Positions 409 through 20,000 of a DNA stretch of 20,000 nucleotides are shown in pieces. The translations under genes and the position numbers were made by a program. How positions within the stretch are numbered: the first letter of the stretch is position 1; the number at the start of each line of letters is the position of its first letter. A model generated the notes under the pieces. That model was not told the origin of the DNA, ran no database searches, and saw only the letters and a list, made by a program, of their open reading frames with translations. The DNA is from Proteromonas lacertae (Eukaryota), in the NCBI GenBank assembly GCA_002245135.1, contig NGBS01000314.1:120137-140136 (forward strand), written 5' to 3'.

Positions 409-2132
409 ATGAAATATTATATTGATATACAAATATTAAGAGGTTTTTCAATATTATTTATAATTTTATTTCATTTTAATATTATTAAAAGCGGTTATAA
501 AGGAGTAGATGTTTTTATATTAATATCAGGATTTTTAGTATACAATCAATACGAGAAAAACAAATCAATTCTACTATTTTTAGTATATAGGATACAAAGA
601 ATAATGATACTATCATATTTTGTTCAGTTTTCCATACTAAAATTCTATTCAGTATATGATAAATATAATATATCAAATGTAATTGATGAATATAATAATG
701 CTTTGCTATTTGTTTCAAATATTTATTATTATTACATAGGTAATGATTATTTTTTGTCTAATACTAAGAAAGTGTTGTTACATTATTGGTATATATCAAT
801 GGATCTTCACTTATATTTTATTTATCCATTAATTCATAAAGCAAAAATGATTTTCATATTCATATTTTATTTAATATTCTTGATAATTCATATAAAAGAT
901 AATAGTTTTTCATATTATTTTGCAATAGCTAGGTTGTATGAATATTTGATAGGAAATACATCATTTATATATAGAAGAATAAATAATAAGTACATAAAAT
1001 ATGTTTCTATTATTTTAATTCTCTATTCACTTTCCTTTACATTAAGTAATTACTATATAAGTAATATAATAATTCTATTATTTACTTATTTATATTTAGT
1101 AAATGAATCACAAAGTATAAGTATATATATTATTGAAAAAATTGGAAATGTATCATATATCTTGTATCTTATTCATTATCCATTATCAATTAAAAATAAT
1201 TCAATCATGTTGCTAATTTTATTAATGCCCATATATGTTATTCTTAAATATATAGAAAGCTCTATTACTATACATTTAAAAGAATTCAATATAGTATATT
1301 CATTAGCATTTGTTCTATTCTATTATTTTATCTGTAGAATTGTGTCATATAAAATATCTAAGAGTAAAACAGAATTTAAAGATAATATACCTAAACAAAC
1401 ATTTATAAATAATTGTTGTGATAATTTTGAATATAGCAGAAATGATATATTAATTATTGGTGATTCTCATTCATATAGATTCCTTGTAAATGTGTTACTT
1501 ATAATATGTGGAAATGAAATTAAGATATACTATAAATTTGTCCATTCAAACTGGATTATACATAATTCTATAAAATATATTAATGATATTTATAACAAAT
1601 TTTATTGATAATTTCCATGAATATGATATCTTGTAGATTGAATTATAAACTACCTATTTTAATTGATGAATATACCAAATATGTTTTATTCTTAAAATCA
1701 AAATGTAAATATTTAATAGTATATAAACCTACACCAACTTTCAATAAGTCAATAGATTGTTTAACACAAATCAAAAATAGAATAGCTATAATAAACTATA
1801 ATATCACTTATATACCTTTTAATCTGAATATCACATATAATAAATATTTCATTCTCAAAGATCTATCAAAATATTATTGTAACAATAGAATATGCAACCT
1901 TACATATAATAGTAGATGTATTTACGATGATTACAATCATTTAAATTCATTATTTTATCGTAGTATATTTAATATTGTAAAGATTGATATACTAAAATAC
2001 ATTCCACATGTTAAACAAAAAGACATGAAATGCAAAAGTTTTATTGTATATAATAATATAATCCCTTACAATTGGGTTTTTTTAAGGAGCTTCTGTATTA
2101 AATCATATTATAGTAAATCTGATTTACAATAG
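409..2132 (+). CDS. Acyltransferase-3 + SGNH O-acetyltransferase (OafA/OatA-like), split by one frameshift near 1600-1604
   Basis: Motifs IQILRG...FH, GVDVFILISGF, RIQRI, LLHYWY, IGNVSYILYLIHYP and GDSH are in ORF 409-1608. The SGNH DxxH motif (DYNHL) is in overlapping ORF 1605-2132. Adding one T to the T4 run at 1600-1603 fuses them (KFLLIISM, compare KFDLVIIG in the paralog). Intronless. Confidence 0.85.
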
Positions 2133-2530
2133 TATTTAAAACATTTACAAGGAATGCAATTCGATAGTCAATTAACAGGTAAATGAATTGAAAAGCAACT
2201 TAATAGGGTTTAATCTTTCTATCATATTACATTTAATTCTATCGGCATATTCTTTCTACTGTTATAAATGCTAAAAACAGTGATAGTGACATTATAGAAC
2301 CATGGTGTGATTATGCAAGTGATCCTCTGATGTAGAGAATGAGATTGCCCATTTCCTAGATACTATTATTAACATTATTAGATTGAAGTATGAATTAGCT
2401 GTTAGAAATTAATAATGTGGAAGCAATAAGTTAAAGAGATGATGAGTAAAACTCAGTTTTAAAGAAAGCAATTGAAAACAACTAATAACTACAATGAAAT
2501 TATTACAATTAAAATTGTATTACATATGTA

Positions 2531-4339
2531 ATGTTTTTTAATGTTATAGAATCTGTCAAAGGTTTTTCATGTTTATTAATTGTCTTGTATCATATATCAC
2601 CAAAATTAATACCTAACGGATTTTTAGGAGTAGATCAATTTTTTATATTATCTGGATTTCTTATTGTTAACTCTATTCAAAATAGTAAATACAAATCCTT
2701 TAAATTTAATGACTTTATTAATAAAAGAATACAGAGAATTATACCATTAAAATGTGTTGTATTATATTATGTTTTATATGTGAATAGACATTATCTAAAA
2801 GAGACAATATTTGATTTGGAGTATGATTCTATTACATCATTGTTATTCTATTTCAACTATAAGTTAATTAATGATAATAATGATTATTTTTCTAAAACTA
2901 CTACTAATTTAATTCTTAATTTTTGGTCTTTATCAGTAGAAGAACAATATTATATATTAATAGCAATAATATCAATAATTGCTTCAAAATTGAATAATAT
3001 AACATCTATAATTATTCATATAACCATAATATGTTTATCTTATATATCTTTTTATCACTACTATACAGAATATTATGTTATATCATTCTACAGCGTTATA
3101 TCTAGAATGTGGGAATTTAGTTGCGGTTCATGCGCTTACTATTATAATAATTATTATTCAAATCGATATCTTATGTATTTATTTGTTATTATTCAAGTCA
3201 TGTTAATGTTTTCAAGCAAAATTGGTGTTATTTGTCATGTATATATAAATGCTATAACAGTGTATCAAATCAATTACTCAAAATATAATAATGATATATT
3301 TTTCTCCAACTATATCATCAGATTTATAGGTAGATTATCCTATTCTATTTATCTATTTCATTATTCGAATGTAATGCTGTTTAACTACAAAAAGGGAATA
3401 ATTGTGACAATATTAGGATCAATTATTTTATATTATATAATTGAACAGCCATTTAGAAAATATATATCAGGTTTAGTTATTATTGTATTTTATATAGTAT
3501 ATATTTTTATCTTTTACAGAATGTATGTTAAAGATTATAAATATACTGCAGTAAGGAAAACTGATTATTATTTTATAAAAGATATGTGCTCATATGATAT
3601 AGTAGACTATATAATTAAATCAAGAATTAATATATTGTTATTAGGTGATTCACACGTTTTACACTTCATTAGAGCATTTTATAATAATAAATGTGATGTT
3701 GTATTATATTATTCATATATATATGATGCTGACATGTATAAAAGCAAATATCGCACAATAAACTATTTATTAAAATATAAATTTGATTTAGTAATAATAG
3801 GATTTTTTGAACAATTATATAGAAATGAATCATATAAATATAAAATATATTTATTAATAGAATACATCAAGAATATTACTAAGAATGTATTAGTTATATC
3901 AGATAATCCATTAATAAAAGTTGACCCCAATAATTGTCTCTTATCAAAGAAATGTAGTTATGGTATTATTAATATAAATTGTAGTATTATTCCACCTCAT
4001 AATCTATCCAATTATAAATTCTCAATTAACCTAAATGTTTATGATTATAATACAAATAAATACACCGTACAAGGAAATAAATGTGTATTCTTTGCAAAAG
4101 GAATTCCTATATATAGGGATCAACATCATTTTAGTGGTTTTTTTGTAGAAACCATTTTAGCAAATGAAATACATAATTTGTTAAACCTAATATTAGAAAG
4201 AACTATATACAAAGATGTATCTGTTTCTCATATAAAGTTTCATTGTTTGGAAAATGATCATAATATATATAAAAAAATTTGTTATAGAAATAATTATAAA
4301 ATACAGAATATACATATAACAAATATAAAACATAAATGA
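2531..4339 (+). CDS. Acyltransferase-3 + SGNH O-acetyltransferase (OafA/OatA-like), 602 aa
   Basis: Motifs K-x10-H, GFLGVDQFFILSGFLI, KRIQRIIP, FWSLSVEEQYY, SRMWEF, GRLSYSIYLFHY, IEQPFR, LLGDSH and YRDQHH. Multiple hydrophobic helices. Intronless. Confidence 0.93.
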   Translation: MFFNVIESVKGFSCLLIVLYHISPKLIPNGFLGVDQFFILSGFLIVNSIQNSKYKSFKFNDFINKRIQRIIPLKCVVLYYVLYVNRHYLKETIFDLEYDSITSLLFYFNYKLINDNNDYFSKTTTNLILNFWSLSVEEQYYILIAIISIIASKLNNITSIIIHITIICLSYISFYHYYTEYYVISFYSVISRMWEFSCGSCAYYYNNYYSNRYLMYLFVIIQVMLMFSSKIGVICHVYINAITVYQINYSKYNNDIFFSNYIIRFIGRLSYSIYLFHYSNVMLFNYKKGIIVTILGSIILYYIIEQPFRKYISGLVIIVFYIVYIFIFYRMYVKDYKYTAVRKTDYYFIKDMCSYDIVDYIIKSRINILLLGDSHVLHFIRAFYNNKCDVVLYYSYIYDADMYKSKYRTINYLLKYKFDLVIIGFFEQLYRNESYKYKIYLLIEYIKNITKNVLVISDNPLIKVDPNNCLLSKKCSYGIININCSIIPPHNLSNYKFSINLNVYDYNTNKYTVQGNKCVFFAKGIPIYRDQHHFSGFFVETILANEIHNLLNLILERTIYKDVSVSHIKFHCLENDHNIYKKICYRNNYKIQNIHITNIKHK

Positions 4340-4340
4340 T

Positions 4341-4395
4341 TTCTCACAGTATTTTATAATTATTTTCTCACAGTATTTATATTCTCACAGTATTT
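4341..4395. repeat. Three copies of TTCTCACAGTATTT
   Basis: Copies at 4341-4354, 4365-4378 and 4382-4395, immediately after the stop codon at 4339. Confidence 0.9.
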
Positions 4396-4471
4396 ATGAT
4401 TCATAAGATTAATCTCATTTATTTGGTAGTACTGTTGTTGGTAATACATCTGAATTATTAACATCTATTAA

Positions 4472-4849
4472 TCAATTATCAACATCCAATGTTTTACTCC
4501 AGTTCAATAGTTTTACTTCATCATCTTTAGATTCTTCTACTGCTTCTATTGTGGAATTATCAATTACATCTTTATGATAATCTGTTGATTTCCATTTTAA
4601 TTTTCTAAGTGAATAAAGTAAATCATAATGTCTATCATATAATTTTAATAAACTATCCATCATTTTAAATTTAAAAGAGAAGTAAGAAACTGTATTTGCA
4701 TATGAGATATAGTTGTCAAATGGATCTAAACTAATATCTATATCATTGTGAATAAAAAGATCAGAAAATTGATGAAACATAATTAAAAACGGATTGGATA
4801 GTTGATATGTTACAAATTTTCCTCTTATATCAAATGAACAGAATCTCAA
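4472..4849 (-). CDS. Hypothetical ORF or gene fragment
   Basis: 125-codon open frame in very AT-rich DNA with a non-ATG start. IDNSTIEAVEES resembles IDSTMEAVEQS encoded at about 7358-7392. Confidence 0.35.
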   Translation of the reverse strand: MRFCSFDIRGKFVTYQLSNPFLIMFHQFSDLFIHNDIDISLDPFDNYISYANTVSYFSFKFKMMDSLLKLYDRHYDLLYSLRKLKWKSTDYHKDVIDNSTIEAVEESKDDEVKLLNWSKTLDVDN

Positions 4850-4930
4850 TTGATAAACTACTTTCCATGGATTGCAATATTGTAAATTATATAACAGAGA
4901 TCGTCAGTATTGGCCTTAATTGTATCGACG

Positions 4931-6109
4931 TTACTTGTTGAGACCATGGACTTGCTTATAGCACTTATCGATCTTGTTGGATATATCACTAGTGCAGAAG
5001 GACTTTGCCTTGGTATTGGTTTCATCGATAGTAGCTATCCTTTCTCCATTGAGGTTCTGAATATCGCCTTCAATGTTATTCATCTGGTTCTTGAAGTCCT
5101 TGTTGTATCCATTGGTGATCTCAATCTCTTGAAGTAGCTCCTTGAACTTAATCATGTTGTTGTTGATTACGGTGTTGATTGTCTTGTAATCTTTGTAGTT
5201 GACTCTCATCTTATCAAGGACTCCGAGAGTTCCAATTAGTTGATTCTCTAGGTCGGTAAGTTTCACTAGACTCTTATCATCGACAGTGGTAATGTACTTG
5301 AGCATGTCGTACATGTTGATCTCATCGATGTTGAGACTCCCGGCTATAGACGATAGCAAGGAGCTCAACTTAGCTAACTTCTCATCCGTGGATGCTTTCA
5401 ATTGACTAACACTTTCATCGGTGGTATCAATGGAGCCTTTGACTTCTTCAATACTCTTACTCATTACTGGGACTTGTTCTTCCAGGTACTGCTTTTACTG
5501 ATTGCTAGTTCCCGAGATGCTCTTCAAGGATGATGTTACCGACTCTCCAAAGTCTTCTGGCATCTTACTATCGATAGACTTACTCAGCTCCTTGACTTCC
5601 TTCAGATCTCTATCCATCTCTTCCATGTTATCAACTTTACTTTGCACCTCCTTGAGTGTTGTCTGGATGCTTATACATGCTGGTTGCACCTTGTCTTCCA
5701 AGTAGTCCTGGATGTGCTGATGGTCTTGCTCTAGCTTAGGGATCTTCTTACTGACTTCTTCAGAGTGCTCATCCAGCTTTCTCTTGATTGATTCTATCGA
5801 TGATGTTACTTCCTCCTGCTGAGTATCGTTGATACTTACTGGAGTACCTCTAATCACATCTTGAATGCAACTTACTAAGAGTGGATCAAACTTCTCATAG
5901 TCAACACTTACCTTGAGATCTCCAGAGGTCAAAGCCTTTTGAACTTGCTCCTTGGTATCCTGGAAGACTACGTCCTTATCGTACCTTACGATTACTCGGG
6001 AGTCTACCTTTTGCTTAGTGTCGGTCGTGTTCTTATCGATCATATTCAACAACCTTAGTATCTCCACCTCGTTCTCACATAAGCTATTATTGAACATCGC
6101 CCCCAGCAA
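4931..6109 (-). pseudogene. Long coiled-coil protein interrupted by a single in-frame TAA at 5495-5497
   Basis: ORFs 5495-6109 and 4931-5464 are in the same frame (SNQ*KQYLEEQVPVMSK). There is an internal repeat (HIQDYLEDKV versus Q*KQYLEEQV) and heptad-like K/E/D/S/L/I composition. Confidence 0.6.
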
Positions 6110-6151
6110 ACAAGATATTGGGTTAGAATGTATTGAGTGAGATCGTTTAAC

Positions 6152-6849
6152 TTAATTACGAGATGTCGGAGGCTGAGCTGATGGTTGGGTCGGGATCGTC
6201 CATTGATCGATAGACATAGAAGCTCTTGAATCTGATAAGTGCTTCTTCTTACGGGGTGGTTCATCATCGTCATTGCTATCCTCGGAGTTGCGCTGTTGCT
6301 TTCGTAAGCGTCTTTGATTATACCATGAAGTATAGTTCCTACACCTAGAGCAGTTCACGTAGTACTTACCCTTCTGATTCTTGAGCAACTCTTCCTTGGG
6401 GTGCATATAATAACACTGGTTACAGACTAGCTTCTGTGATGGGTAATCACCAGTCTCTCGAATTGCTATCCCTTTAAGGGAATAGACATCACGCATCATC
6501 GAGATGAACAGTTCAATGCTCTGCCAACAGATGTCACAGATCCTTTGTCCTGATCGATCAACCTTAGTTACTTCGTCCGATAAGTAGAGTTCGTTGATCT
6601 TGCATCGATAGCACTTAACATTTTCATCCTCATTAAAGTCATCTCCTATCACTTCTCCTCTGGCATGTGATAATTGCTTAAGTTCTTTGAATCGTGATAG
6701 AAGCTCCTGAGAATGCTTTGTGTGCATCTCATGGAGGTAATTCTTTTGTTGGCTTCTACAACTAGGACATCAGATATAGTATCTCTTATCAGGCATCTCA
6801 AAGTTTCGGGCATTGAAGGACTTCTGCATTCTAAGCAAGGTAAAGTCAT
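6152..6849 (-). pseudogene. Protein with three CxxC...CxxC zinc-finger-like units, 5' part interrupted
   Basis: ORF 6152-6727 has CYRC...CDIC and CNQC...YYVNCSRCR plus a basic PPRKKK NLS-like motif. Upstream in the same frame is KRYYI*CPSCR (TGA at 6770-6772), and one frameshift further is LPCLEC. Confidence 0.65.
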
Positions 6850-7935
6850 TGATGGATCAACATCCTTGAAGGCTCCATGGACATAGATAGAATTGCCATT
6901 GTTGTTGGGGTGGTTGAGTATCGCTAACAGCTTCCTTGAATATCATCTCTGGTGGTCGCAATATCGAAGTCTCCTGTTTCTTAACTTCTATCTCGGGAAT
7001 GTTTACTTCATAAGGCATCTGTGGTAAGTCTAATTCATCATCACCATCCGATATGGTTATCTTGTCGATGGTAACGTGGTAATCTCAGAACCTTTATCTT
7101 GATTACGTAATCTCCATAGTCGGAGGGATTATCATGTTGTTGATCACCATCATCATCCTTGGACTCCTCCAAGTGATTCTCATCATTGACTTCAAAGGGA
7201 TTGGAATACTCATGTAGTTGTGATTCTAAGTTCATCTCCATGCCATTGATAAACTCTTCGGGAGGTGTCTACTCTTAGTTGGATCCTTTATAAGCTTTCT
7301 TAAAGAATCCTGGTTGGATTGATCATCATCAACTGCAATAGCCTTCTTCTTCTGGGTAGATTGCTCCACAGCTTCCATGGTTGAATCTATTGCTGGGTAC
7401 TTCAAAGTCTCCTTGAAGTACAGGTTTATAGCACTATTGCTAGCAGCCCTACATCTTCTTTAGTTCATCAGTAAAATCTGGATCTAGAAGGGGACGGACT
7501 CCTAGAACACTCGTTAGAAATCTGACATTTGTCCCACAGTCCCATTTATATACTATATACCATTCTAAGTCTAGGAGACGTTTTTCACTTCTCAATTTTC
7601 TTCTGTGCCTTATGTGTATCATTTCATAATTATTGATACTATTACTTAAAACAAAAAACAACATAAATAATGTAATTTTGAGTTTTATACAAAAGAAGCT
7701 AAGTGGTAAAAGAATATTGTAATTGGCTATACGCTGAAATGAATGATTTCTATAGAACGTATTGAAATTAGAAATACATTAATTTGTTGTAGCATTTAGA
7801 ATCATGTCGATTAAATATTGTATATCTGTTTATATTGTAGATATTAACTTTGTAACTGAAATTATAGATTTAGATGAAAAGCATATACTTATAAAACAAG
7901 TGTTACAGATTGTTGCAATTAAATGTTGCTAAATT

Positions 7936-9780
7936 TCATACTAATGATGAGTTTGATGAATAGTTATTATTTTTTATCATATGATAAATGAGTTTTCTAT
8001 ATAAAATATCATAATGAATATAACAGTAAGATATTTTAGATATTTTATTTATGGTAATATTTTTTGATAATATAACAAGTTTATATACTTTATTCTTCAT
8101 TAATTTAACATAACATTCAGTAAGATGATGATTATCAGAATAAATTTCAAATCCATTTTTATACATATTACATATTTTGTTTGAGCATATTTCTTTAGTT
8201 AAATTAATATAAAAAATATTGCTTAAATTGATTTTTGGTTGTAAGTCTGTTGTACAATTAACATCAATAATGCAAAATATATTATTTCCGTTTATATTAG
8301 AAGAATAGATAATTTTGGGATTGTACTTTAATGAAGGATTATCAACAAAAATGAATATTTTATTAGCTATGCCAGACAAATAATAATTTAAACTATTCAA
8401 ATTTTTTAAATATAAAGGACTTCTGTATTGTATGTTAGAATAAAAACCTTCAAAGACATAGAAAGGATTTCCAATCATATTAATTACACGTTTCACTACT
8501 AAATAATAATTATTAATGAAATAATGAATCCAAAATACCAAAAAGAGGACAAATAATCCAGTAGATTTATATAAAGGTAGCAAAACCACATTCCATTGTC
8601 GTAAATGTGAATCACCTACTAAAAGAATATACTTCCCATCCATTTTAATATTTTTAATTAAGTTATTATAAAAAATACATTGTGTACATATTTCATTATC
8701 ATTAGGAAATACATTTTTACATTTTACTATATTTGATTCATTTCTATTAAATAAAAAAACAGCCTTAATAACCAAATATGTAATATATATTTCAACTACT
8801 ATGCTATAAATATATACTACAATATAAGTACTATTGAGATTAGTAAAATAATTCTCAACAAATAAGTAGCAGAATATACTAACAATTAAAACTAGAATTA
8901 TAGATACATTTGGATAATATGTTAGCAGAGGATAATGAACTATATAAAATGAATAGGATAAAGAACCAAAATATTGTATTGCTTTTATTGAGAACAGTGA
9001 ACTACTTTTAAACTCTTGGAATAGCATCAAAAATGAAGTAATCAAAGGTAATAACATTTTGTGGTTAGGATATTGACCAATAGAACATTCATAACTACTA
9101 TAAATCCACATAATAATAACAAAAGCATCATATAAATACTGACATTTAATTATGTTACCATAATGAACTATATTTAGATAAGACCCAAAAATTAGTTCAC
9201 AAAATCTAACTTCGAATGAATAGTATGAGTAATTAACATCCTTGCTACAAATATATAATGAAAATGAAAATGAAATACAAAATATAATAAAAAGAGAATA
9301 CTTTATATATTCATTGAATATCAATTGAATAATAAATGGCCATATTAAATAAAACTGATTTTCAACAGATAAGGACCAATAATGTAATAATGGTGTATAA
9401 CTAAGCGAACTAGATTGCTCTAAATAATTTACTGATATGTAATAATAATAATAGTTTGCATATGAATATAAACATGACAATATTTCTTTGGATCTTTTAT
9501 ATGATATGAATGGATTTGATAAGGATGATATATATATAATTAACAATATTAAATTTGACATGGGTTGTAATCGAAGTATTCTTCCTTTAAAGAAGGATAT
9601 GTAATAATTTTCTTTTTTCATTCTTCTTATTAAACTTCCTGTTATGAAATATCCTGATAATGTGAAAAAAATATCAACTCCTATAAAACCTCCTTTGAAA
9701 TACTTATTCTTTTTATGAAAATAAAAAACAAATATCATCGCAAAAAATCTGACTGCCTGCAAATCATTCCTGTATCTCAT
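7936..9780 (-). CDS. Acyltransferase-3 + SGNH O-acetyltransferase (OafA/OatA-like), 614 aa
   Basis: Motifs YRNDLQAVR...FH, GGFIGVDIFFTLSGYFIT, RILRLQP, PLLHYWSLSVENQFYLIWP, GSLSYSFYIVHYP, LVGDSH and YSDNHHLT. Most canonical of the three copies. Intronless. Confidence 0.95.
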   Translation of the reverse strand: MRYRNDLQAVRFFAMIFVFYFHKKNKYFKGGFIGVDIFFTLSGYFITGSLIRRMKKENYYISFFKGRILRLQPMSNLILLIIYISSLSNPFISYKRSKEILSCLYSYANYYYYYISVNYLEQSSSLSYTPLLHYWSLSVENQFYLIWPFIIQLIFNEYIKYSLFIIFCISFSFSLYICSKDVNYSYYSFEVRFCELIFGSYLNIVHYGNIIKCQYLYDAFVIIMWIYSSYECSIGQYPNHKMLLPLITSFLMLFQEFKSSSLFSIKAIQYFGSLSYSFYIVHYPLLTYYPNVSIILVLIVSIFCYLFVENYFTNLNSTYIVVYIYSIVVEIYITYLVIKAVFLFNRNESNIVKCKNVFPNDNEICTQCIFYNNLIKNIKMDGKYILLVGDSHLRQWNVVLLPLYKSTGLFVLFLVFWIHYFINNYYLVVKRVINMIGNPFYVFEGFYSNIQYRSPLYLKNLNSLNYYLSGIANKIFIFVDNPSLKYNPKIIYSSNINGNNIFCIIDVNCTTDLQPKINLSNIFYINLTKEICSNKICNMYKNGFEIYSDNHHLTECYVKLMKNKVYKLVILSKNITINKISKISYCYIHYDILYRKLIYHMIKNNNYSSNSSLV

Positions 9781-10048
9781 TTGTTAATAATAGTCAAATC
9801 AAAATTCGAACCTAAATCGCTAATCTCAACTTCTGGCAGAAAGCCTGTAATTCACAATTCAATCAGCCAAAACCAGCTATGATTTATCCGATCATAATGT
9901 GTTGGAAAGATTGTTAAATAAATTACAAGTTCATAATCTTTAGTGATGAATCAATGATTAGGCTAAATGAAGTAAAAACTATGGGCTTATAAATCGCTTT
10001 ACCTAATGAATTAACACCCTTTAGTAAACAATCATAGGCAATGCTATT

Positions 10049-10655
10049 TGTTGTTCCCCGTATGGCGGAAATCTATATTGCAGAATGATTCAATCAAAAC
10101 TAATATGATATTCATGATGTTCGGAGTTAGTTATTAACAAATATATAGTTAGTTTGTCATATGACCTACATCTGTGATATACTTTTTTATGAACTTCATT
10201 ATTATCAATATTAAACTAATTAATTATTTTATTTTTTATATTTTAATGTATCAGTGACTACTACAGTCTAAAATACATTATTTGATATGAATAGAATTCA
10301 CTATTTGTAATGTTAAGGCGGTTAAAAAAGAAAAAAGAAAAAATAAGTTCAAGCCTCACTCAAGTCAGCTTTTTAATTTCTTTTTTAAATAAGTTGTTAT
10401 TTAAATTATTGTAATTTATTCATATCAAATAATGTATTTTAGGCTGTAGTAGTCACTGATACATTAAAATATAAAAAATAAAAAAATTAGTTTATTATTG
10501 ATAATAATGAAGTTCATAAATAAGTATATCACAGATGTAGGTCATATGACAAACTAACTATATATTTGTTAATAACTCTTTATAACTAAGATAAAAATGA
10601 TATTAGTTTGTTTTAAAAGTTATTGTATGATAAGAGGGCTCAACGGCGCACAACA
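10049..10655. mobile_element. Non-autonomous inverted-repeat element A (MITE-like, TGT...ACA)
   Basis: Terminus TGTTGTTCCCCGT (10049-10061) pairs with the reverse complement of 10643-10655, TGTTGTGCGCCGT (11/13). Near-identical ~165-bp inverted arms lie at 10129-10293 and 10417-10577. No matching TSD (CTATT left, GGTGT right). Confidence 0.75.
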
Positions 10656-10660
10656 GGTGT

Positions 10661-11286
10661 TGTCGCGCGCGATAAAGAAATTTGCGCGATAAAGGAAATA
10701 ATAAGTTTCCATTAAAGTGAATATGTTAATACTTATTTGGAAGGCCGAGTAAATATAAATATAACATTATTTTGTCTAATAAATTACATATGTTGAAATT
10801 GTCATCAAGTTTTCAATAAGATTTATATCATCTATTATTAATCTTTGTAATTATTTTATTATTTAAATCGCTAGAATATATTAATATATATGTCTTATTA
10901 ACATATTGATATATATATAGTACCCTTTAAAAAAATATTAAAGAAAAAAGAAAATATGCTCAAGCCTTCTTCAAGCCAATATTTTATTTTTTATTTCAAA
11001 CCATCGTAACATCGATTTTGTTTAATCTTTTCATCAAAGAACTGTTTATTTCAATTTCTTCCAGTGATATATGCAATAAAAATAATGTTAAATGATAGAA
11101 ATAATTAAGATGAATATGAAGTGAATATTTATGAATAATTGAACATAACTATTGTATATGACTGTTATAAGACAAAATGATTATATATTCATGCATAGCG
11201 TAATGACATTAACAATAATATTATATTAGATCTAAATATAAACAATTACTTCCTTTATCGTGCAAATTTCTTTATCGCGCGCGACA
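10661..11286. mobile_element. Non-autonomous DNA transposon B (MITE) with 42-bp TIRs and 5-bp TSD, Ginger/TDD-like ends
   Basis: TIR TGTCGCGCGCGATAAAGAAATTTGCGCGATAAAGGAAATAAT at 10661-10702 and its inverse at 11245-11286 (2 mismatches). GGTGT is duplicated at 10656-10660 and 11287-11291. No ORF inside. Confidence 0.9.
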
Positions 11287-11415
11287 GGTGTTATTTATGC
11301 ACTTTTACTATGTCATTTTAATTATTCACATAAGTGGTTTAAAAAGTATAATAAAGTGTTTAGTTATTGTAGTATATGTAATTATGTAATTAAGTATTAA
11401 TAGAAATATATATGT

Positions 11416-12477
11416 ATGTTAAAGAAATTAATTTTTATTTTACTTATTTGTGTTACTTTATACATTTGTAATACTTTGAAAAATAAGGAAGATAATTGCA
11501 TAGATATAGGTTTATGTTTTAGGAATTTAACTATTCATAAACAATCAGCAAAACCATATATGTGTAATGATACATCATCTTTATACATACCTTTTCATAT
11601 AAATAGGAAATGGAGTAATCAACCTAACATTATAGTTGTAACAATCTATTTGTATCCTTCACATACACAATATTATTCATATATTAATTTCGTTAGAAGT
11701 TTTACTTTAAGTAACAAAGGAAGAATACTCTTACTCATTTCCTTTCGCATATCGTTATATAGATATTTATGTAATACTATGAATATTACGAGAATAACTA
11801 ATACAAAAAGAATATATAAATATTTAACAAATTTAGATTACGGATATTCATTATTCAAATACAAGACACATAGTTCTTACTGTTATTTAATATACACAAA
11901 TATGGAACAGAAATACTTTGATAATGATTTTCTTAATCATAGATATTACACAATTAAAAATAAAAACTATTCTTTTAGCGGGTATTATGCAGCATCAACT
12001 AATTTATACTCTATATTGCCAAATATTTTGAATATATTCGATTATTATGATTATTTTTTTAAATATGATTTTGATAAATCTGGAAAAATAAACATATGGG
12101 ATTTTGCTTTTACAAATAATAAAATAAGAAAATGGTTTCTTTTTGGTACATGTTTCTTGTTAGATTCTTATTATGTATGTAATGATGTGAAAAAAATGTT
12201 ATTAGAATATGTAAGATTAAAAAACTGTAATAGAAATATAGTTAATTTAATTAATATATCAAATGAGTGTATTAATCTTCCAGGATGGTTTACAGGAATG
12301 TGGTTAGGATTATACTCATCTGTAGAAGTGAGGGATTTTAGTAATTATTATATATTACATAAGAAGAGTATGAAACAAAATAGATGGGGAGATCAACAAT
12401 TTTTTACAAATGCATTGATGTTGTTTGGTAGTAAAGAAAAGTTATATTACAATTTAACATATGATTGTGTAATATAA
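11416..12477 (+). CDS. Glycosyltransferase family 15-like (KRE2/MNT1 alpha-1,2-mannosyltransferase-like) type II membrane protein
   Basis: N-terminal signal-anchor. YDYFFKYDFD resembles GT15 YDYYWRVEPD, and C-terminal NRWGDQ resembles GT15 ERWGDA. Intronless. Donor sugar cannot be determined from sequence. Confidence 0.7.
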   Translation: MLKKLIFILLICVTLYICNTLKNKEDNCIDIGLCFRNLTIHKQSAKPYMCNDTSSLYIPFHINRKWSNQPNIIVVTIYLYPSHTQYYSYINFVRSFTLSNKGRILLLISFRISLYRYLCNTMNITRITNTKRIYKYLTNLDYGYSLFKYKTHSSYCYLIYTNMEQKYFDNDFLNHRYYTIKNKNYSFSGYYAASTNLYSILPNILNIFDYYDYFFKYDFDKSGKINIWDFAFTNNKIRKWFLFGTCFLLDSYYVCNDVKKMLLEYVRLKNCNRNIVNLINISNECINLPGWFTGMWLGLYSSVEVRDFSNYYILHKKSMKQNRWGDQQFFTNALMLFGSKEKLYYNLTYDCVI

Positions 12478-12879: not shown

Positions 12880-13451
12880 TTAGTTATCAGATTTCATTCT
12901 TTCAAGTAATTCAATTTCTTTCTTCAATTCTTCAATTCTTCTATCTGCTTTTTTAATCTTTTCGTCAATGATAGAATCTCTTTTTCTAAATTCCTTACTG
13001 GTAGTGTAATTTATGAATTTATTAATTCTATTACTCATTGAGTCTATCATACTACCTGAATGCATTAATATATCATAATTATTCTCATCTATCATAACAG
13101 TATTACTTCCACTTCTTGTAATTTCTCTATTTCATAAAATGAGTAAATATACGAATTTGATGTCTGATTTTCTGAATTAATACAATCAGTACATATATCA
13201 TTCGATTGATCAAATGTTTGATTCTTGTCAGGTGTTGATAATGGAGTTGTGTTTATTCGTTCAGAAATTTCTTCATCATATTTCTGTGTAATGTCATTTT
13301 CCTATCAAAATTCTATAACAATTTCATTAAATACGGTTAATTTGTTGTTAATTGAGGATGATTCATTATTTGACTTAATTTTTTTATTTATTTTATCTGT
13401 ACTATCATTCTTTGATGTACTATTATCATGACTTTTTCTTTTAGAAGGCAT
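12880..13451 (-). CDS. Hypothetical protein (~170 aa, 3 exons, C-terminal coiled coil)
   Basis: ATG at 13451 (MPSKRKSHD). GT-AG introns 13302-13334 (33 nt) and 13127-13152 (26 nt) give a continuous frame into ORF 12880-13095. Confidence 0.75.
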
Positions 13452-13556
13452 ATGTGAAGAAAACAATAAATGGCGCGAAAATAATTCTAAAAATTATATT
13501 CGTTTCATAATTCTTTAAAAACAAAAAATTCATAAATACAATAAATATTTAGTCTT

Positions 13557-14226
13557 CTAGTCCTTATTTTTTAATTGATTTATAATTGGATTACCTGATG
13601 GGCCTTGAAAAACTGTTCCATTTGATAAAGGTAAATCTAATTTTGGAATAATTCTTCGCTTTTTTAGAATTGGAGTATTTCTATCAACTGAGTCTTTACA
13701 TTTGTCAATGTCTGAATTATCTACTAAACAATTTTGAGTTTTTCTTACTATTTCTCTCTCTTCTTCTAAATTCTTTCTTTTAGATTGATACGAGTGTTTT
13801 TCTCCTGGAATCCATTTTGCATTTGGTTCTAATTCATATGCTTTTTTTATCCATGCCTTATATTCTCTTTCCAACTATTAATCATAAAGAATTCCTAATA
13901 ATACAAATTCAGCTCTTTCTTTGAATTCTTTTATTTTATGTGATGAATAATTTCGATTCACTTCTAATTGTTCTACATTGTACTGTAATTCTTTTTTGAT
14001 TTTCGGTAACCACTTCCTTATATCTCTAGATGTTTTTACAGTATCTCTATATTGTTAAATTATAATGTATTTCTATACAAAGGTGGTCTTTCATAACTTC
14101 TTATTTGATCTTTATCTTTTGCTATTACAAATCTGTAGAATAATTAAGAAAATATTCAAATTAACATAATATATGGGGAAATGATATATTTATCTCACTC
14201 TTCTGTTTTTCAGAATTTCTTGCCAT
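13557..14226 (-). CDS. ISY1-like splicing-factor family protein (~184 aa, 4 exons; short divergent homolog)
   Basis: Exons 14226-14188, 14134-14079, 14046-13905 and 13874-13557 give MARNSEKQKSEINRF...ERPPL...RKWLPKIKKEL...LEREYKAWIKKAYEL. This aligns with the ISY1 N-terminus (MARNAEKAMTALARF...RRP...EKWRRQI...LREKGHWEVRIKEL). Confidence 0.8.
14135..14187 (-). other. U12-type (minor spliceosome) AT-AC intron, 53 nt
   Basis: Donor ATATCATTT, branch-point-like TTTTCTTAAT (14152-14143), acceptor TTCTAC. Phase 0 splicing restores an ungapped match to ISY1 residues 1-15. Both available GT donors joined to the adjacent AG hit TAA within two codons. Confidence 0.82.
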
Positions 14227-14289
14227 TCTGGTGTATGAAAATATTTTCGTTGCATTTCATTCCCCTCATTTTAGATTTTCTTTTGTTTT
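14227..14289. promoter_or_regulatory. 63-bp divergent intergenic region (bidirectional promoter and 5' UTRs)
   Basis: Head-to-head ATGs at 14226 (minus) and 14290 (plus). Confidence 0.6.
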
Positions 14290-14995
14290 ATGTCAATTCA
14301 ATCTGAAGGACTTTATTTTATTGCAGTTCCAGAGGAAGATAAACCTAATGGAGGATATGATGATATTGAAAAATGCATTAGTTCGTCAGTTAACTCATTT
14401 TGTGGTATTTTATGTTTTATTAGGTTTTAGATATTCACCGATTTGAAATTCCGAAATTACCAGTTGGTACCCTTGAAATATTGATGGTATTTTTTATATT
14501 AGTATATTTTGTATGTAGGTTCTTTCAGAAGAACTTATCAAAGTGGATACTCAAGGAAGAGGCGTATTAGATAAAATTAGAAAGGCTTATTATGAATTAG
14601 TCCAAGAAGGTAGTAGAAATTCATTGTTAGTTGCAAATGGAACAATATTAGATTATTTAAAGAGTTTTGTGTGGAATGAGACAAGTTTTTCAAAGACAGA
14701 CAAACTCCAAGAATTGTCTAAAAAGATATCTGATGTATATATTGTTCCATTTATTAATTGAGAATAGAAATTTGTTAATGAAGAAACAGAAATTCGTAAA
14801 ATGAATAACAGATATACAGAAATAAAGAATCAACTTGTAGCATTGAAGCGTAAGAGCGGTACAACGTTATTATCTGCTCCAATATCCTCAATATTAACAA
14901 ACGATGTAATATTGCAAGGAACAGGAGGTATGACTCCATCTGAATTATTCATAAATACTGATTTTATGAAAACTATAGTTATTGTTATATCAAAG

Positions 14996-15027
<32 letters not shown>

Positions 15028-15635
15028 GAACTCAAGAAAAGGAATTCTTAGCATCTTATGAGAAGTTATATTCCATCACCAATAATACAAATGGAACAGT
15101 AATGTATGGAACAATACCAAAATCAGCAAGAAGAATTATTGAAGATAAAGATAGTTATGTTTTATATACTATAGTTATCTTGAAGAAATTTGAAAATGAA
15201 ATTAATGAGATATGTAAAGAACATCATTATCATATTCGTGAGTATGATCTTGCTGAAGAAACAGATAAACCAGAAATAAAAGATGAAGAGAAAATAGCAA
15301 AATTAGAAAATGAAGAGAAGAATATGAAATCGAGTATTACTAGATGGTGTAGACCTCATTTCAGTGATATTTATCAAGCTTGGGTGCATCTAAAAGTGAT
15401 TCGTGTTTATATTGAAGCTATCTTGAGATATGGTTTACCTCCTAAATTCATTTCAGCAATTATTAAAGTAAGACCAAAGATGGAAAAGAGGTTAGAAAAA
15501 TCTTTAATTACAAAGTATGAACATTTAGGAGGTAAAATAAAGGCATATGAAAAAGATAGTAACAGCAGTATTATTGGTGGATCAGATACTACTAATTATC
15601 CATTTGTTTGTATTAATATTGAACGATTAGCTTAA
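14290..15635 (+). CDS. ATP6V1C: V-type proton ATPase subunit C (~406 aa, 5 exons)
   Basis: Exons 14290-14404, 14431-14486, 14519-14734, 14768-14994 and 15029-15635, with GT-AG introns of 26, 32, 33 and 34 nt. Motifs FEIPKLPVGTLE, FVWN, RKSGTTL, AWVHLKVIRVYIEAILRYGLPPKF and YPFV. Confidence 0.95.
14996..15022. repeat. (TA)n microsatellite forming most of V-ATPase C intron 4
   Basis: Direct reading. The intron spans 14995-15028. Confidence 0.9.
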
Positions 15636-15763: not shown

Positions 15764-17311
15764 CTATGATTTATTTCCTTGTTCTCTTAATTTTTGTATT
15801 TTCTCTCGAATTGCAATCATTCTTGGGTCATCTGTTTTAGTTGGAGGGACAATTCCGCTAGAACCGTTGGCTTTATTGCTATTAATTCTTTGAACTTGAG
15901 TATTCAATACTCTTTCATGTAAAGATTCTAATCTTGCTGAAAATGCTGATTTTGGCTCAGACTATTAAATGTATATAAATATGATAAAATACTGGTAGGT
16001 TATATTGAGATTTCAATTGTTTCAATCTTTCTTTCACATCCATAGCAGTGTTTGATTGCAAATAATTATTTGTCAAATTCATTGTTCTTTCTTTAGAAGC
16101 AATTGTATCTAATTCTCTTATAATGTAAGTACTATAAACAGACCCTAACTGTTGAAGGTAAATATCAATATTAATCTGAGGATGTTGTTGTTTAAACTCA
16201 TATAACATAGGAATAGTTGGACAAGAATTAATCTCTTTTCTTGTTAATTTTGCTATTTCTTGTGTTATATTCTGAAGCATTTGCTGTAATCTAGCAATAT
16301 TATCATCTTCATCATCATCTTCATCTTCATTATTGTTATTATTATTATTATTCTGTAATAAACTCATAATCTTTGAATATAATACATCTTGTAATGAAAA
16401 CTTATTAATTTGTGTTTGTAATAAATCATATTGTGATTCTACATAATCTCTAATCAAATCATCCAAAGTTAAATCCATTGAATTCTGATATCTTTTGTAT
16501 AAAAGAGATGAATATATTTTATTTAATGATGGTATAAATATCTCACAATTGATTCTACTGTATGGTTCACTTTGTTTTGCTTCAGCATGTCTTATTTTAT
16601 CCAACATCTTTAATATTACTTGTAACTTCTGTTCAACGTATTTTTCTCTAATACTTGTCAAGTATAATGTTTGACAAATTGCTGCTAATAACAGTGTTGT
16701 ATTTGCTGATTGTAATACACGAATTAATACATGTTGAAATGCTTGTGCTAAATCCTTTAATTGATCATTCTCCTGTAGTGTATCTCCTAATAACCCCTTT
16801 AATGATAATTGTAATAGATTTTCAAGAGATTTTTCACTTATCAATTGTGCAATTCTGGGTTGTTGGAATATTGCCAATAAATCCTGATAATGTAACAGAT
16901 AACATTCGTGAATCTACTTCACTTCCTTTAATATTATCGCCTAATGATAATCTTGCACATTCTATCAATCTGTTACTAATTTATCCCACTTCATGTTTAT
17001 TAACTCATCAATTGAATCACCTTCTAACACTAATTTTACTATAATCTTGCATGAATCAACAGCATCATTGTGATCTCCACGATATAAATCGATAATTTGA
17101 TATGGAAGAACTCCTGTTTCATATCTTATTATTATATTCTCTAATTTTAATATTATTCTATCTATTATTGGCATTTCTTCATCTGATTCAGTTCTTCCTC
17201 TTGTTCTTCTGTGGTAGTGTTCTCTTGAATATAGTGGCGAATCTACATAACTATCACCTAAACTCATTCTCTTAAAGTTAAATACTTACATAACATTAAA
17301 GAACTAAATAG

Positions 17312-17351
<40 letters not shown>

Positions 17352-20000
17352 AAATGATATATTTGAATCACTGCTTAATGCAGTTACATTTGCATCTGAA
17401 TTAACATAATTCTCTCCATCCTCAACTTCTCCTTCTTGATATTGATATTGATCTTCACCATAATTATAATTGTAATTTCCATATACATCTTCATCTGTAT
17501 ATTGTTCTACTTCTTGTTGTTGTTGTTGCATCTCCTCTTCATAATTATCTTCTTCTTCTTCTGATGCTGCTATTACTACAGGTCTTTGTCTTGGTGGTGT
17601 ATATCTTGGTATTCCACTATTTCGCTGTTGTGCTATTAATGGATGTGGTGGAGGTGTTTTCTTAGCTCCAACATATGGTGATGTATGGATTTTCTATTAA
17701 ATAATAATTAATATTAATAATATTATGATTATACAGTATCAGGTATTTCAATATTGGAATGTTTAATTCTTTCTGCTATAAGATCTTGTATTTTTTTTGG
17801 TAAATCAGGTACTAAAGCGTATATTCTTTCCACTACATATTCAAACTCAATATATAATTGAATAGTTATTTCTAATGCTGAATTTCTAATATCTTTATCA
17901 TCACTACCAACCAATTTAATAATATTCTGTAATCCCTTCTTTGGTACAGCAACACTTCCTCTATCTCTCACTAATATATTTATTTCTACTAAACACTCAG
18001 TTACTACCCTTTTATTCTTATTATCTAATTGGTCTATTAAATATGGAACTATTTTTTCTGAATCATATAAACTCCATATTAAATTCATCAAATCATGACC
18101 ACTCTTAACGAATCTAATTTTATTTGAACCAAAGAATTTCTCTAGTATTGTTGGTAAAATGATAGAAACTTCTTTATCAAGGAAATGATAACTATTATAA
18201 TATAAAATATATATAATATATACTCTTTATTATCTAACATGGTAAATAAATTAGTGTAAAAATCAACAATTGTTGCTGTTTGAGTGGTTAAATCTCTTCC
18301 TAATAATTTCAATGTTACATATTTCAATAATAAATCCAATATTGACACTACTTCATCTGGATTAGTTTGAACTGCTTTGATTAATAGTTTTAATGCTTGT
18401 AATACATCTACATCTTTCTTAGAAAACATTAAATCAAATAATTCAGTTGGTAAATATGGTTGGATCAATCTCTTCACATCTCCCATATATTGTTCTTCTC
18501 TTACTGTAGTATTCCATATTGTACGATCTTTATTAATTCTATCATATTTCACTGCATCAGAACATAATATAAAGTATTCATTTGAACCACCATTCTCTAT
18601 ATCCACAAACATATTTGGACGAACTTTAGCTTGTTTATTAGCTGGACCTAATGTCTTTGTAACTGGAGGAGGAATACCTGATGATTGTTTTGTAGATGGC
18701 ATTTCTGTTTTTGCATAAACATTCTTCTTCTTCATTTGCAGTGGAGAACTACCTTTGATTATATCATTCTGAAACATTATTGTTATTGTTGTCATTTATA
18801 TTAGCAGATTCAAATATACTATCTAATCTAGGTTGTACCTGTCTTAATACAGCTGGTTTATAATCTCTAGTAGCATTAATAATTGGATTTCTACCTAAAT
18901 GTTGAACTACAATAATTAAACAACTTTCAGCAACATCTTTACAGCCTTTAAATTATCTTGTATTGATTCAACTAATGGTTCAACTAAACAATCAAATGTA
19001 TTAGTTGTTTATTATTTAGATACTTAATCAACCATGATAAATTTATTCTTATTCCCTTTTATAACATCAGCTACATATGGAATAACACTTTTATTGATGA
19101 TATATCACCATCATGATCTACCCATTTATCTAATGTATCATATAATACAGAGGTTATATTCTTTCTACTATTTGTTGATATACCTAACATATATGGCAAT
19201 ACTGATTTATTGAATTGTGTAATATCTGGACCAACACAAGCTGCTAAATATCCTAATACTTCGACAGCTTTAGATTGAAGATTCTGATTTGGTTCGAATT
19301 TAATTCTGTCTCTTAATGCTAATACTACTTCTTTCACTGGTGTTAATTCAATTTGAAATGTTGATTGCAATAATACACTCAAATCTGACATTGCTTGATT
19401 TCTATTCTTCCAAGCTTCTTTGTTTGAATTATCAGTTAATTTGACTAATAAAGGGCTGTAATTGTTTAGATATATCAACTGCTCTCATAATATCATTATT
19501 ATTACCATTATTATCTTCTTCACCCTCTATTTCTATTGGTGGAACATAATCTACTTTATATTCTGCTTTAGAAAGTGCTGTTTCTATTGTATTAGTTAAT
19601 TGATTGGAGAGATTATAACATGTTAACATTGGTGATAATTGTGGTCCAAGTTGTTCATATAATGATGTTAATACTTTTAATGATTCATTCTTTGCTGATG
19701 AATTAGGAGATTGTAAACACTATTATTATATATATATATATATATACAGTATTAGCAGTAACATAATCCAATATACACTTTATATCCAATTTATTTATAC
19801 CAAATCACTAATTGCTTTTGATAAATATGATAATATAGTAACATGTACTGCCATTGATTTAGTGGGAATAATTAATGGAATTATTAAATCATAGTCCATT
19901 TTGGTGATATCTTTATTGATGATTGGTTGTATATTTCTATTAGAAATGGAGATAATCTTCTTTCACTTATCTTCTCAACTGTATTCTTAATCATGTAATT
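15764..20000 (-). CDS. CKAP5: XMAP215/ch-TOG/CKAP5-family microtubule polymerase, 3' portion (5' end beyond window; several apparent small indels)
   Basis: TOG/HEAT motifs AWKNRNQA, ILDLLLKYVTLKL, RVVTECLVEI, DIRNSAL and LYEQLGP. GT-AG introns at 19720-19747, 18192-18223, 17694-17734 and 15962-15992. The last exon ends with TAG at 15766-15764. Confidence 0.88.
17277..17360 (-). other. Candidate second U12-type AT-AC intron containing a (TA)n tract (17316-17348)
   Basis: Same donor context AAT|ATATCATTT as in the ISY1-like gene, branch-like TTCTTTAAT (17303-17295), and in-frame acceptor TTTAAC|TTT AAG AGA ATG. In-frame GT-AG alternatives exist. Confidence 0.55.

Follow-up and report, generated by a model that had tools for sequence, protein, structure and literature searches.

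Eukaryotic glycan O-acetylation is usually credited to enzyme families other than the AT3-SGNH proteins that concern us here. The Golgi enzymes of the CASD1/Cas1p type, which O-acetylate glycans in animals and fungi, bring acetyl across the membrane and combine a multi-pass domain with an SGNH/GDSL-like domain, but the esterase-like domain comes first in these proteins, which is the reverse of the AT3-SGNH order, and they have a membrane domain from another family. For the bacterial proteins OafA/Oac, the R/K-X10-H and RXXR motifs are reported to be essential (PMC7448272), and among the mutants tabulated by Pearson et al. 2020 (PMC7448272, Tables 1-2), changes of motif residues abolished the O-antigen acetylation of OafA. 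AT3-SGNH proteins are found in eukaryotes as well, with 42 counted in C. elegans in one account of that family (10.1101/2025.08.10.669515). Here, we describe a cluster of three AT3-SGNH genes (designated AT3a, AT3b, and AT3c) and one glycosyltransferase-like open reading frame (ORF353) from Proteromonas lacertae. The cluster lies within positions 120,137 to 140,136 (forward strand) of contig NGBS01000314.1 from assembly GCA_002245135.1, and this entire 20,000-nucleotide stretch is referred to as the window. A first-pass annotation had described the left part of the window as a horizontally acquired, intronless island of glycan-modification genes with very low GC content. Our overall reading, in which we have moderate confidence, is that the cluster consists of old, resident AT3-SGNH paralogs and a GT15-like gene that would modify glycans, with a likely ancient entry of the AT3-SGNH family from bacteria. 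The three old paralogs are of the OafA/OatA type; two are intact and one is likely decaying.

The AT3-SGNH genes and ORF353

The three AT3-SGNH genes are arranged as follows, with the first of them divided into two pieces:

409..1608, plus strand: N-terminal part of AT3a, comprising the AT3 domain and the putative start of the SGNH domain (GDSH) and ending at the TGA of a frame change (Acyl_transf_3 E value 1.1e-9)
1605..2132, plus strand: putative C-terminal SGNH part of AT3a in the -1 frame, with the DxxH of block V kept (aligns to residues 450-571 of AT3c and 437-587 of AT3b)
2531..4339, plus strand: AT3b, intact, 602 residues (E values of 1.2e-12 for Acyl_transf_3 and 6.5e-5 for SGNH)
7936..9780, minus strand: AT3c, intact, 614 residues, the best conserved copy (Acyl_transf_3 E value 2.3e-15)

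All three genes scored above the Pfam cut-off of 31 bits for the Acyl_transf_3 family (PF01757), at 38.3 bits for AT3a, 48.0 bits for AT3b, and 56.9 bits for AT3c, in a hidden Markov model (HMM) search that had been suggested in the first-pass annotation. The SGNH family (PF19040) has a cut-off of 27 bits and was matched in two of the three, just above the cut-off in AT3c (27.3 bits) and below it in AT3b (23.2 bits), while a Pfam scan of the C-terminal ORF of AT3a returned no PF19040 match. The SGNH domains of AT3a and AT3b are putative ones, assigned by alignment only. Together with the modeled OafB-like fold described below, these matches bear out the earlier identification of three AT3-SGNH O-acyltransferase genes.

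AT3c retains all 39 of the conserved columns in a 60-sequence homolog alignment. Its motifs are R11/H22 (R-X10-H), G31-F32-x-G34-V35-D36, F38-F39-x-x-S42-G43, and R67/R70 (RXXR), and it also keeps E309, G389-D390-S391, D549/H552, and two cysteine pairs. AT3b keeps 35 of the 39 columns, including the catalytic Ser, Asp, and His, and the four positions at which it differs are noncatalytic. The R/K-X10-H and RXXR motifs are present in every copy, with the former represented by R/H in AT3a and AT3c and by K/H in AT3b and the latter by an arginine pair in each. Similarly, the triad of AT3c, which is composed of the GDS serine and the Asp and His of DxxH, has equivalents in AT3b and, spread over its two pieces, in AT3a, while the motif of the first outer loop that is peculiar to fused proteins, GG-F/Y-xGV-D, reads GGFIGVD in AT3c, NGFLGVD in AT3b, and SGYKGVD in AT3a. 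It should be noted that the correspondence of these residues to OafA was made by motif, with no direct alignment to OafA.

A structural model of AT3c (predicted local distance difference test [pLDDT] score of 84) shows eleven long helices and, after them, an alpha/beta domain. Within this model, the C-terminal domain (approximately residues 364-577) appears closest to the periplasmic SGNH domain of OafB (6se1), with a Z score of 13.7, an rmsd (root-mean-square deviation) equal to 4.4, and 218 residues aligned. The next matches were PatB and GDSL esterases, with Z scores of 9-12 for the other SGNH structures and 9.9 for OatA (6vjp). When the whole AT3c model was compared to these SGNH structures by Foldseek, E values reached only 3e-3 to 3e-2, and a sequence search with AT3c matched no PDB chain.

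AT3a has no intron, as stated in the first-pass annotation, but its coding sequence occupies two frames (409-1608 and 1605-2132), and the gene is therefore either broken or misassembled. The -1 switch falls in a T/A-rich run within approximately positions 1600-1606, and no residues are lost relative to the paralogs. The R-X10-H, GVD, RXXR, and GDS motifs are all present, and the equivalents of D549 and H552 (AT3c numbering) are kept in the C-terminal piece. AT3a differs at 7 of the 39 listed conserved positions, and its L137I, E140D, and Q142H substitutions (AT3c numbering) affect positions at which 60 of 60 aligned homologs agree. Its branch is also the longest in both of the phylogenetic trees described below. 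Because of the frame change, the substitutions at invariant sites, and the branch length, AT3a is probably decaying; an assembly error of the homopolymer type is the alternative. A broader version of this idea would be that all three AT3 genes are disused relics, with AT3a merely the first to show its decay. The frame change and the three substitutions of AT3a would fit this scenario, as would the very long branches of both AT3a and AT3b and a probably dead foreign gene in the middle of the cluster (see below). However, AT3b and AT3c have remained free of stops for 602 and 614 codons in otherwise stop-rich DNA, the catalytic triad is preserved in both along with the AT3 motifs, and AT3c has orthologue-like relatives with 46-55% identity and the same motifs. 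Thus, we consider decay of the entire cluster to be very improbable and favor the presence of two intact genes beside a single failing copy.

The fourth gene of the cluster encodes a different type of enzyme:

11416..12477, plus strand: ORF353, 353 residues, a predicted type II membrane protein resembling GT-A glycosyltransferases, with a GT15-like fold (structural model, Foldseek, and VIA)

ORF353 had no Pfam match, and a search with Glyco_transf_15 (PF01793) yielded none even at E values of up to 1. Only 26 relatives turned up when 1.84 billion representatives were searched in a full HMMER pass. Fourteen relatives were scanned against Pfam, of which 12 had no family, one was an unrelated GAF/HD protein, and one (P0137) matched Glyco_transf_15 with an E value of 1.1e-3 and 18.8 bits, which is below the 25-bit cut-off. 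Neither the ORF353 family profile nor P0137 had a meaningful match in the PDB, including any GT15 chain. Ten relative clusters were looked up, and four of them are named, with Tritrichomonas foetus, T. musculus, as well as Porphyridium purpureum (‘Hexosyltransferase’ in UniRef) joined by an uninformative JGI/IMG ‘hypothetical protein’. The relatives are found within P0121-P0141 and also include several metagenome or assembly records; the family appears to be unclassified. Its alignment displays an N-terminal hydrophobic anchor together with invariant D209, D212, D218xD220, WLG, E304, and RWGDQQ. In the structural model of ORF353 (pLDDT 85), a helix formed by residues 2-26 precedes the catalytic domain. 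The ten best Foldseek matches of the model were all GT15 proteins, with E values from 1.5e-7 to 2.4e-6 and template modeling (TM) scores of 0.46-0.50, and the VIA Z scores were 15.8-17.6 for six GT15 entries vs. ≤12.4 for other GT-A folds. The earlier label of ‘GT15-like’ therefore holds at the level of the modeled fold and finds no counterpart in the Glyco_transf_15 HMM search. As judged from the model, ORF353 is best described as a member of a separate, uncharacterized GT-A family that is nearest to GT15 and lies outside of the Pfam GT15 family. As a Pfam-less family common to Tritrichomonas and Porphyridium, it deserves classification.

Composition, introns, and ancestry of the cluster

With the exception of one block, the GC content is 19-30% across the whole window. 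Its left side consists of long ORFs under the standard genetic code, while the right side consists of strings of short ORF segments. The window is nuclear DNA of an AT-rich eukaryote that uses the standard code and has tiny introns. In code and composition, it is partly compatible with trichostome gut ciliates, for which the standard code and 25.7-26.3% GC are reported in Muniziella (PMC11316547) and a coding GC3 of 13.33% in Entodinium (PMC10384029), although the Muniziella introns, at approximately 100 bp, are unlike the 26-35 nt found in the window. Of the alternative genetic codes, tables 4 and 6 were tried and rejected: the standard code was kept because the AT3 genes, ORF353, and the host exons require no reassigned stops and specify Gln by CAA and CAG only. 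No RNA genes were detected in the window by Rfam and tRNA scans.

The AT3b, AT3c, and ORF353 genes are uninterrupted ORFs, and the genes of the cluster align end to end with their homologs. On the right flank, GT..AG introns of approximately 32-34 nt can be read directly in the sequence, and two of these were checked by eye. Since they alter the reading frame, they are true introns, rather than read-through stops. The remaining right-flank introns were called from DNA by a segment-chaining heuristic and are hence predicted. For the four genes located beyond 12.8 kb, a frame-keeping GT..AG join was possible for 12 of the 17 adjacent segment pairs, and nine of the 12 predicted introns are 26-35 nt long, mostly of the form GTAT...ATAG, with at least one in each gene. 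At approximately 1.7 introns per kb of coding sequence, the right flank would predict about 11 introns in the approximately 6.4 kb of coding sequence in the cluster, whereas 0 were observed, as compared to at least nine in the four right-hand genes. The contrast between the cluster and its right flank is real, and two statements of the first-pass annotation were correct: an intronless cluster adjoins intron-dense genes, and all four genes beyond 12.8 kb contain tiny introns, as each has at least one joinable GT..AG intron.

The same annotation had also drawn attention to the very low GC content of the cluster. Overall GC is indeed low in these genes, but the difference sits in codon positions 1 and 2, because the encoded proteins are of a hydrophobic membrane type rich in I/F/Y/N/K. 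GC content at the third codon position (GC3) is 0.14-0.19 in the four cluster genes and 0.13-0.20 in the flanking exons, so composition gives the cluster genes no foreign mark. The relative synonymous codon usage (RSCU) likewise correlates with that of the intron-bearing flank exons at r = 0.95 for the AT3 genes and 0.94 for ORF353. Consequently, the AT3 genes show neither foreign composition nor foreign codon usage, either of which would be a sign of recent transfer. The host-like GC3 and codon usage argue against contamination, a chimeric join, and recent transfer alike. Spacers between the cluster genes are AT-rich and 0.4-1.6 kb in length. The 1.6 kb spacer between AT3c and ORF353 (9781-11415) contains no ORF longer than 73 codons and nothing that resembles the AT3 or ORF353 proteins, and a tblastn search found no further AT3 or ORF353 copies in the window.

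These data also bear upon the possibility that chimeric assembly or contamination has fused a bacterial or other foreign contig with eukaryotic sequence at approximately 12.4-12.9 kb. Assembly errors could account for the frame shift of AT3a as well as for the disrupted frames of the GC-rich block, which would be compatible with such an event. However, the codon usage correlations of 0.94-0.95 are with the intron-bearing genes themselves, the spacers within the cluster are AT-rich, and ORF353, with its Tritrichomonas and Porphyridium relatives, sits between AT3c and the intron-bearing genes. In addition, the same AT-driven amino acid bias as that of the window proteins is shared by four close relatives of the AT3 proteins (P0001-P0004) and by the ORF353 relative P0121. 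A chimeric origin is accordingly exceedingly improbable, and we treat the cluster as a resident part of this genome.

To place the AT3 family, 7996 candidates were scored, which identified 813 relatives of AT3c at E ≤0.001. The three window paralogs are just 25-29% identical to one another, while P0001-P0004, which are known only from Logan assemblies, share 35-55% identity. Beyond these four close relatives, the matches listed begin at an E value of 1.7e-36 with 21-33% identity, and among the 120 matches listed, those with names are bacterial, except for one EukProt transcript (P0088). Of 604 pattern matches in prokaryotic genomes (one per species), 553 encode relatives with 21-31% identity. 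No close relatives of AT3c were found in JGI metagenomes, and a full-text search of a limited literature collection found no report of AT3-SGNH genes transferred to protists.

Two trees were built, one by FastTree using all 123 rows and the other by IQ-TREE under the posterior mean site frequency (PMSF) model using 42 rows, which consisted of the seven clade members and 35 FastTree-subclade representatives (81 rows left out). In both, the three window copies and P0001-P0004 fall on one side of a supported branch, with values of 99 (FastTree) and 96 (Shimodaira-Hasegawa-like approximate likelihood ratio test, SH-aLRT; IQ-TREE PMSF). AT3c groups with P0001-P0003, which places the duplications before the split from the organisms of P0001-P0004. 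From the 25-29% identity and the shared clade with four relatives, we can conclude that the AT3 family is old and resident, and that these genes are expanded and strongly diverged paralogs, just as the first-pass annotation had it. The phylogeny it had called for thus gave a supported clade for the window genes, though no nesting of that clade inside a bacterial group emerged.

Score-based bacterial affinity and the lack of introns lead us to consider an ancient bacterial origin of the AT3-SGNH family as somewhat the more probable history. Several observations weigh against this origin, and the Pfam scores for SGNH, being marginal, count against our overall reading. The search for a specific bacterial sister group found none, as the clade stands apart from all 116 other rows of the FastTree tree and all 35 of the IQ-TREE tree, and the nearest prokaryotic loci are scattered among Actinomycetota, Pseudomonadota, Chloroflexota, and other groups, no one of which is conspicuous. 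A tree forcing the clade together with the eukaryotic P0088 had a log-likelihood 15.77 above that of the quick free search, with a p value of 0.736 in the approximately unbiased (AU) test, and either a common eukaryotic origin or long-branch attraction is therefore conceivable. Amino acid composition is deviant, branches are long, and eukaryotic sampling is near nil in a database dominated by bacteria. Lastly, ORF353 is equally intronless yet has eukaryotic relatives, and therefore the absence of introns alone is no mark of bacterial import. For the same reason of ancestry, ORF353 is no part of a bacterial import, and the proposal that all four genes constitute one horizontally acquired island is not borne out.

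The opposite history would be a vertically inherited eukaryotic AT3-SGNH family, drawn from an old eukaryotic stock as the nematode OAC genes may also be, that lost or never gained introns, such as through retroposed duplicates, with no bacterial transfer involved. Codon usage and GC3 are indistinguishable from those of host genes, the paralogy is deep, and the AU test result for the grouping with P0088 is favorable to such a history, as are the intronless but eukaryotic-type neighbor ORF353 and the occurrence of the AT3-SGNH architecture among the OACs described from C. elegans (10.1101/2025.08.10.669515). On the other hand, P0088 is the one eukaryotic label among the 120 matches listed, and in both free trees it is placed inside a bacterial/metagenomic group apart from the window clade. 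Likewise, the zero introns in four genes of an intron-dense genome count against vertical descent, and both the motifs and the modeled SGNH fold are closest to bacterial OafB. We regard purely vertical descent as a possible but less likely explanation and keep an ancient bacterial origin of the AT3-SGNH family as the somewhat more probable one. The earlier claim of horizontal acquisition is plausible insofar as the nearest scored relatives are bacterial or metagenomic, while the missing bacterial sister, the host codon usage, and the AU test with P0088 weigh on the other side.

The GC-rich block and the intron-bearing flank

The cluster is interrupted between AT3b and AT3c by sequences of another kind:

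4341..4395, plus strand: three exact copies of the 14-mer TTCTCACAGTATTT, which start 2 nt after the AT3b stop codon
4472..4903, minus strand: ORF125, an open frame of 143 codons belonging to no known family, in frame directly downstream of the GC-rich gene
4904..7590 (approximate), minus strand: 2.7-kb block of foreign composition with a broken orphan gene (GC 40-43%, GC3 0.46-0.56)

The GC-rich block stands out against surroundings of 20-25% GC and had been overlooked in the first-pass annotation; the interval is not uniform, since the low GC of the AT3 genes and ORF353 does not extend to the region between approximately 4904 and 7590. Its codon usage correlates with that of the host at an RSCU r of just 0.34. 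The block contains a frame of 598 codons with two internal TAA codons (codons 191 and 410), and the 5’ 830 nt of the gene are coding-like but scattered over at least three frames. Its product would combine CxxC...CxxC motifs with a long helical part that resembles a coiled coil. No homolog was found in Pfam, among viral contigs, or in a search of 5.8 billion proteins with TAA read as Gln, and an exact 28-mer from the block was absent from metagenome and viral contigs. The best Atlas score of 0.80 was at chance level, and a Stc1-domain cluster at 0.76 is a lead only. Terminal repeats and a target duplication were both searched for and not found. The use of TAA as a sense codon in this gene was rejected as unnecessary, given 2 internal TAA vs. 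19 CAA codons and several 5’ frame breaks, and tiny in-frame introns around the TAAs were ruled out by eye. The block is most simply read as foreign DNA that was inserted recently and is dead already, with an assembly artifact as the alternative. ORF125, on the other hand, has host-like codon usage (RSCU r of 0.80 vs. host exons) and could be what is left of a host gene that was disrupted by insertion of the block.

The copies of TTCTCACAGTATTT have start-to-start spacings of 24 and 17 nt. In addition to the three exact copies, there is one with two mismatches, and four matches with ≤2 mismatches occurred in only 1 of 200 shuffles.

Overall, the cluster is a set of old, resident, intronless glycan-enzyme genes located around a probable dead foreign insert and is no compositional island. 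The practical lesson is that low overall GC in a membrane protein gene is no evidence of foreign origin; GC3 and codon usage, unlike overall GC, pointed to the block of truly foreign composition in the window.

The right flank comprises four intron-bearing genes:

12880..14054, minus strand: intron-containing gene with five ORF segments and no Pfam match
14275..15635, plus strand: V-ATPase subunit C gene with at least four tiny introns (Pfam V-ATPase_C E values of 4.8e-49 and 5.1e-11 in two exons)
15764..17693, minus strand: intron-containing gene with N/D/E-rich runs and a 318-codon exon (intron 15992-15962, 31 nt)
17729..20000, minus strand: XMAP215/TOG-domain gene with tiny introns, extending past the end of the window (Pfam XMAP215_CLASP_TOG E value of 2.7e-12)

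The candidate introns of the first gene are 13904-13875 (30 nt), 13334-13302 (33 nt), and 13152-13127 (26 nt). Those of the V-ATPase subunit C gene are 14487-14518 (32 nt), 14735-14767 (33 nt), and 14995-15028 (34 nt), with a further one of either 26 or 35 nt near 14389-14430. A search with a V-ATPase subunit C exon returned no match, and the Atlas yielded only generic eukaryotic clusters of this subunit. The third gene had no Pfam match above cut-off. In the XMAP215/TOG gene, a 32-nt intron at 18223-18192 was read directly. Runs of (TA)n with 10-18 units occur at 14996-15022, 17312-17348, and 19727-19746, and at least the first of these forms the body of the 34-nt intron in the V-ATPase subunit C gene.

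Proposed function and comparison with known systems

As judged from their sequences, the cluster enzymes are predicted to act on secretory-pathway or cell-surface glycans. The more specific roles proposed in the first-pass annotation, namely acetylation of the surface coat, antigenic variation, and glycosidase resistance, are speculative on these data. By analogy with the bacterial proteins as portrayed in PMC7448272, the AT3 domain of 10-11 helices would move an acyl group (probably acetyl, supplied by cytosolic acetyl-CoA) through the membrane, and the SGNH domain at the C terminus, with its Ser-Asp-His triad and conserved disulfide cysteines, would be lumenal or extracellular and hand the acyl group to a sugar acceptor. 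By analogy with GT15, ORF353 would be held by its single N-terminal helix and may add a hexose, possibly mannose, in the Golgi lumen. The AT3-SGNH family likely entered the lineage from bacteria long ago and would have been duplicated before the split from its relatives in other assemblies. That the AT3 genes are clustered with a GT15-like gene because they serve a shared pathway, acting upon one glycan, is a conjecture. A still more specific proposal, in which a bacterial-derived AT3-SGNH expansion and the GT15-like family form a eukaryotic locus that both builds and O-acetylates a surface or secreted glycan and has recently captured 2.7 kb of possibly viral or mobile DNA, is in our estimation quite doubtful. 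If OafA-type two-domain enzymes are indeed kept intact in a protist, they would offer a further candidate route of eukaryotic glycan O-acetylation. They would also make a clean case for studying how genes of long residence and possibly bacterial derivation remain without introns when the genome around them is intron-dense. The result is one of annotation, with domains that were already known, and as such adds a modest new example.

Among described systems, the GT15 alpha-1,2-mannosyltransferases are the ones to compare with ORF353. Kre2p/Mnt1p (1s4n), Ktr4p (5a07), and CmsA (7boo) have the same type II topology and GT-A fold as predicted for ORF353, and GT15 structures supplied its six best structural matches, with 247-254 residues aligned and rmsd values of 4.0-4.7. 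However, ORF353 is only 10-13% identical to these proteins, has no Pfam GT15 match, and belongs to a family with invariant motifs of its own (DYFDYF, DxD, WLG, and RWGDQQ), which so far consists solely of uncharacterized proteins from Tritrichomonas, Porphyridium, and other assemblies.

For the AT3 genes, the predicted task is the same as that of the CASD1/Cas1p-type enzymes, to which they are likened here by description. The Caenorhabditis OACs, also likened by description, are another eukaryotic, lineage-expanded family with AT3 and C-terminal SGNH domains, of which some are pseudogenes (10.1101/2025.08.10.669515), although the OACs studied so far are tied to small-molecule (pheromone) chemistry, rather than to glycans. 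In comparison to the bacterial OafA/OafB (Salmonella O-antigen) and OatA (Staphylococcus peptidoglycan), the window genes are nuclear and eukaryotic, exhibit host codon usage, are 21-33% identical to the bacterial matches listed, and have no O-antigen or peptidoglycan context. Even so, they share with these proteins a multi-helix AT3 domain at the N terminus, followed by a linker helix and an SGNH domain at the C terminus, along with R/K-X10-H, GG-F/Y-xGV-D, FFxxSG, RXXR, GDS, DxxH, and paired cysteines from the motif list in PMC7448272.

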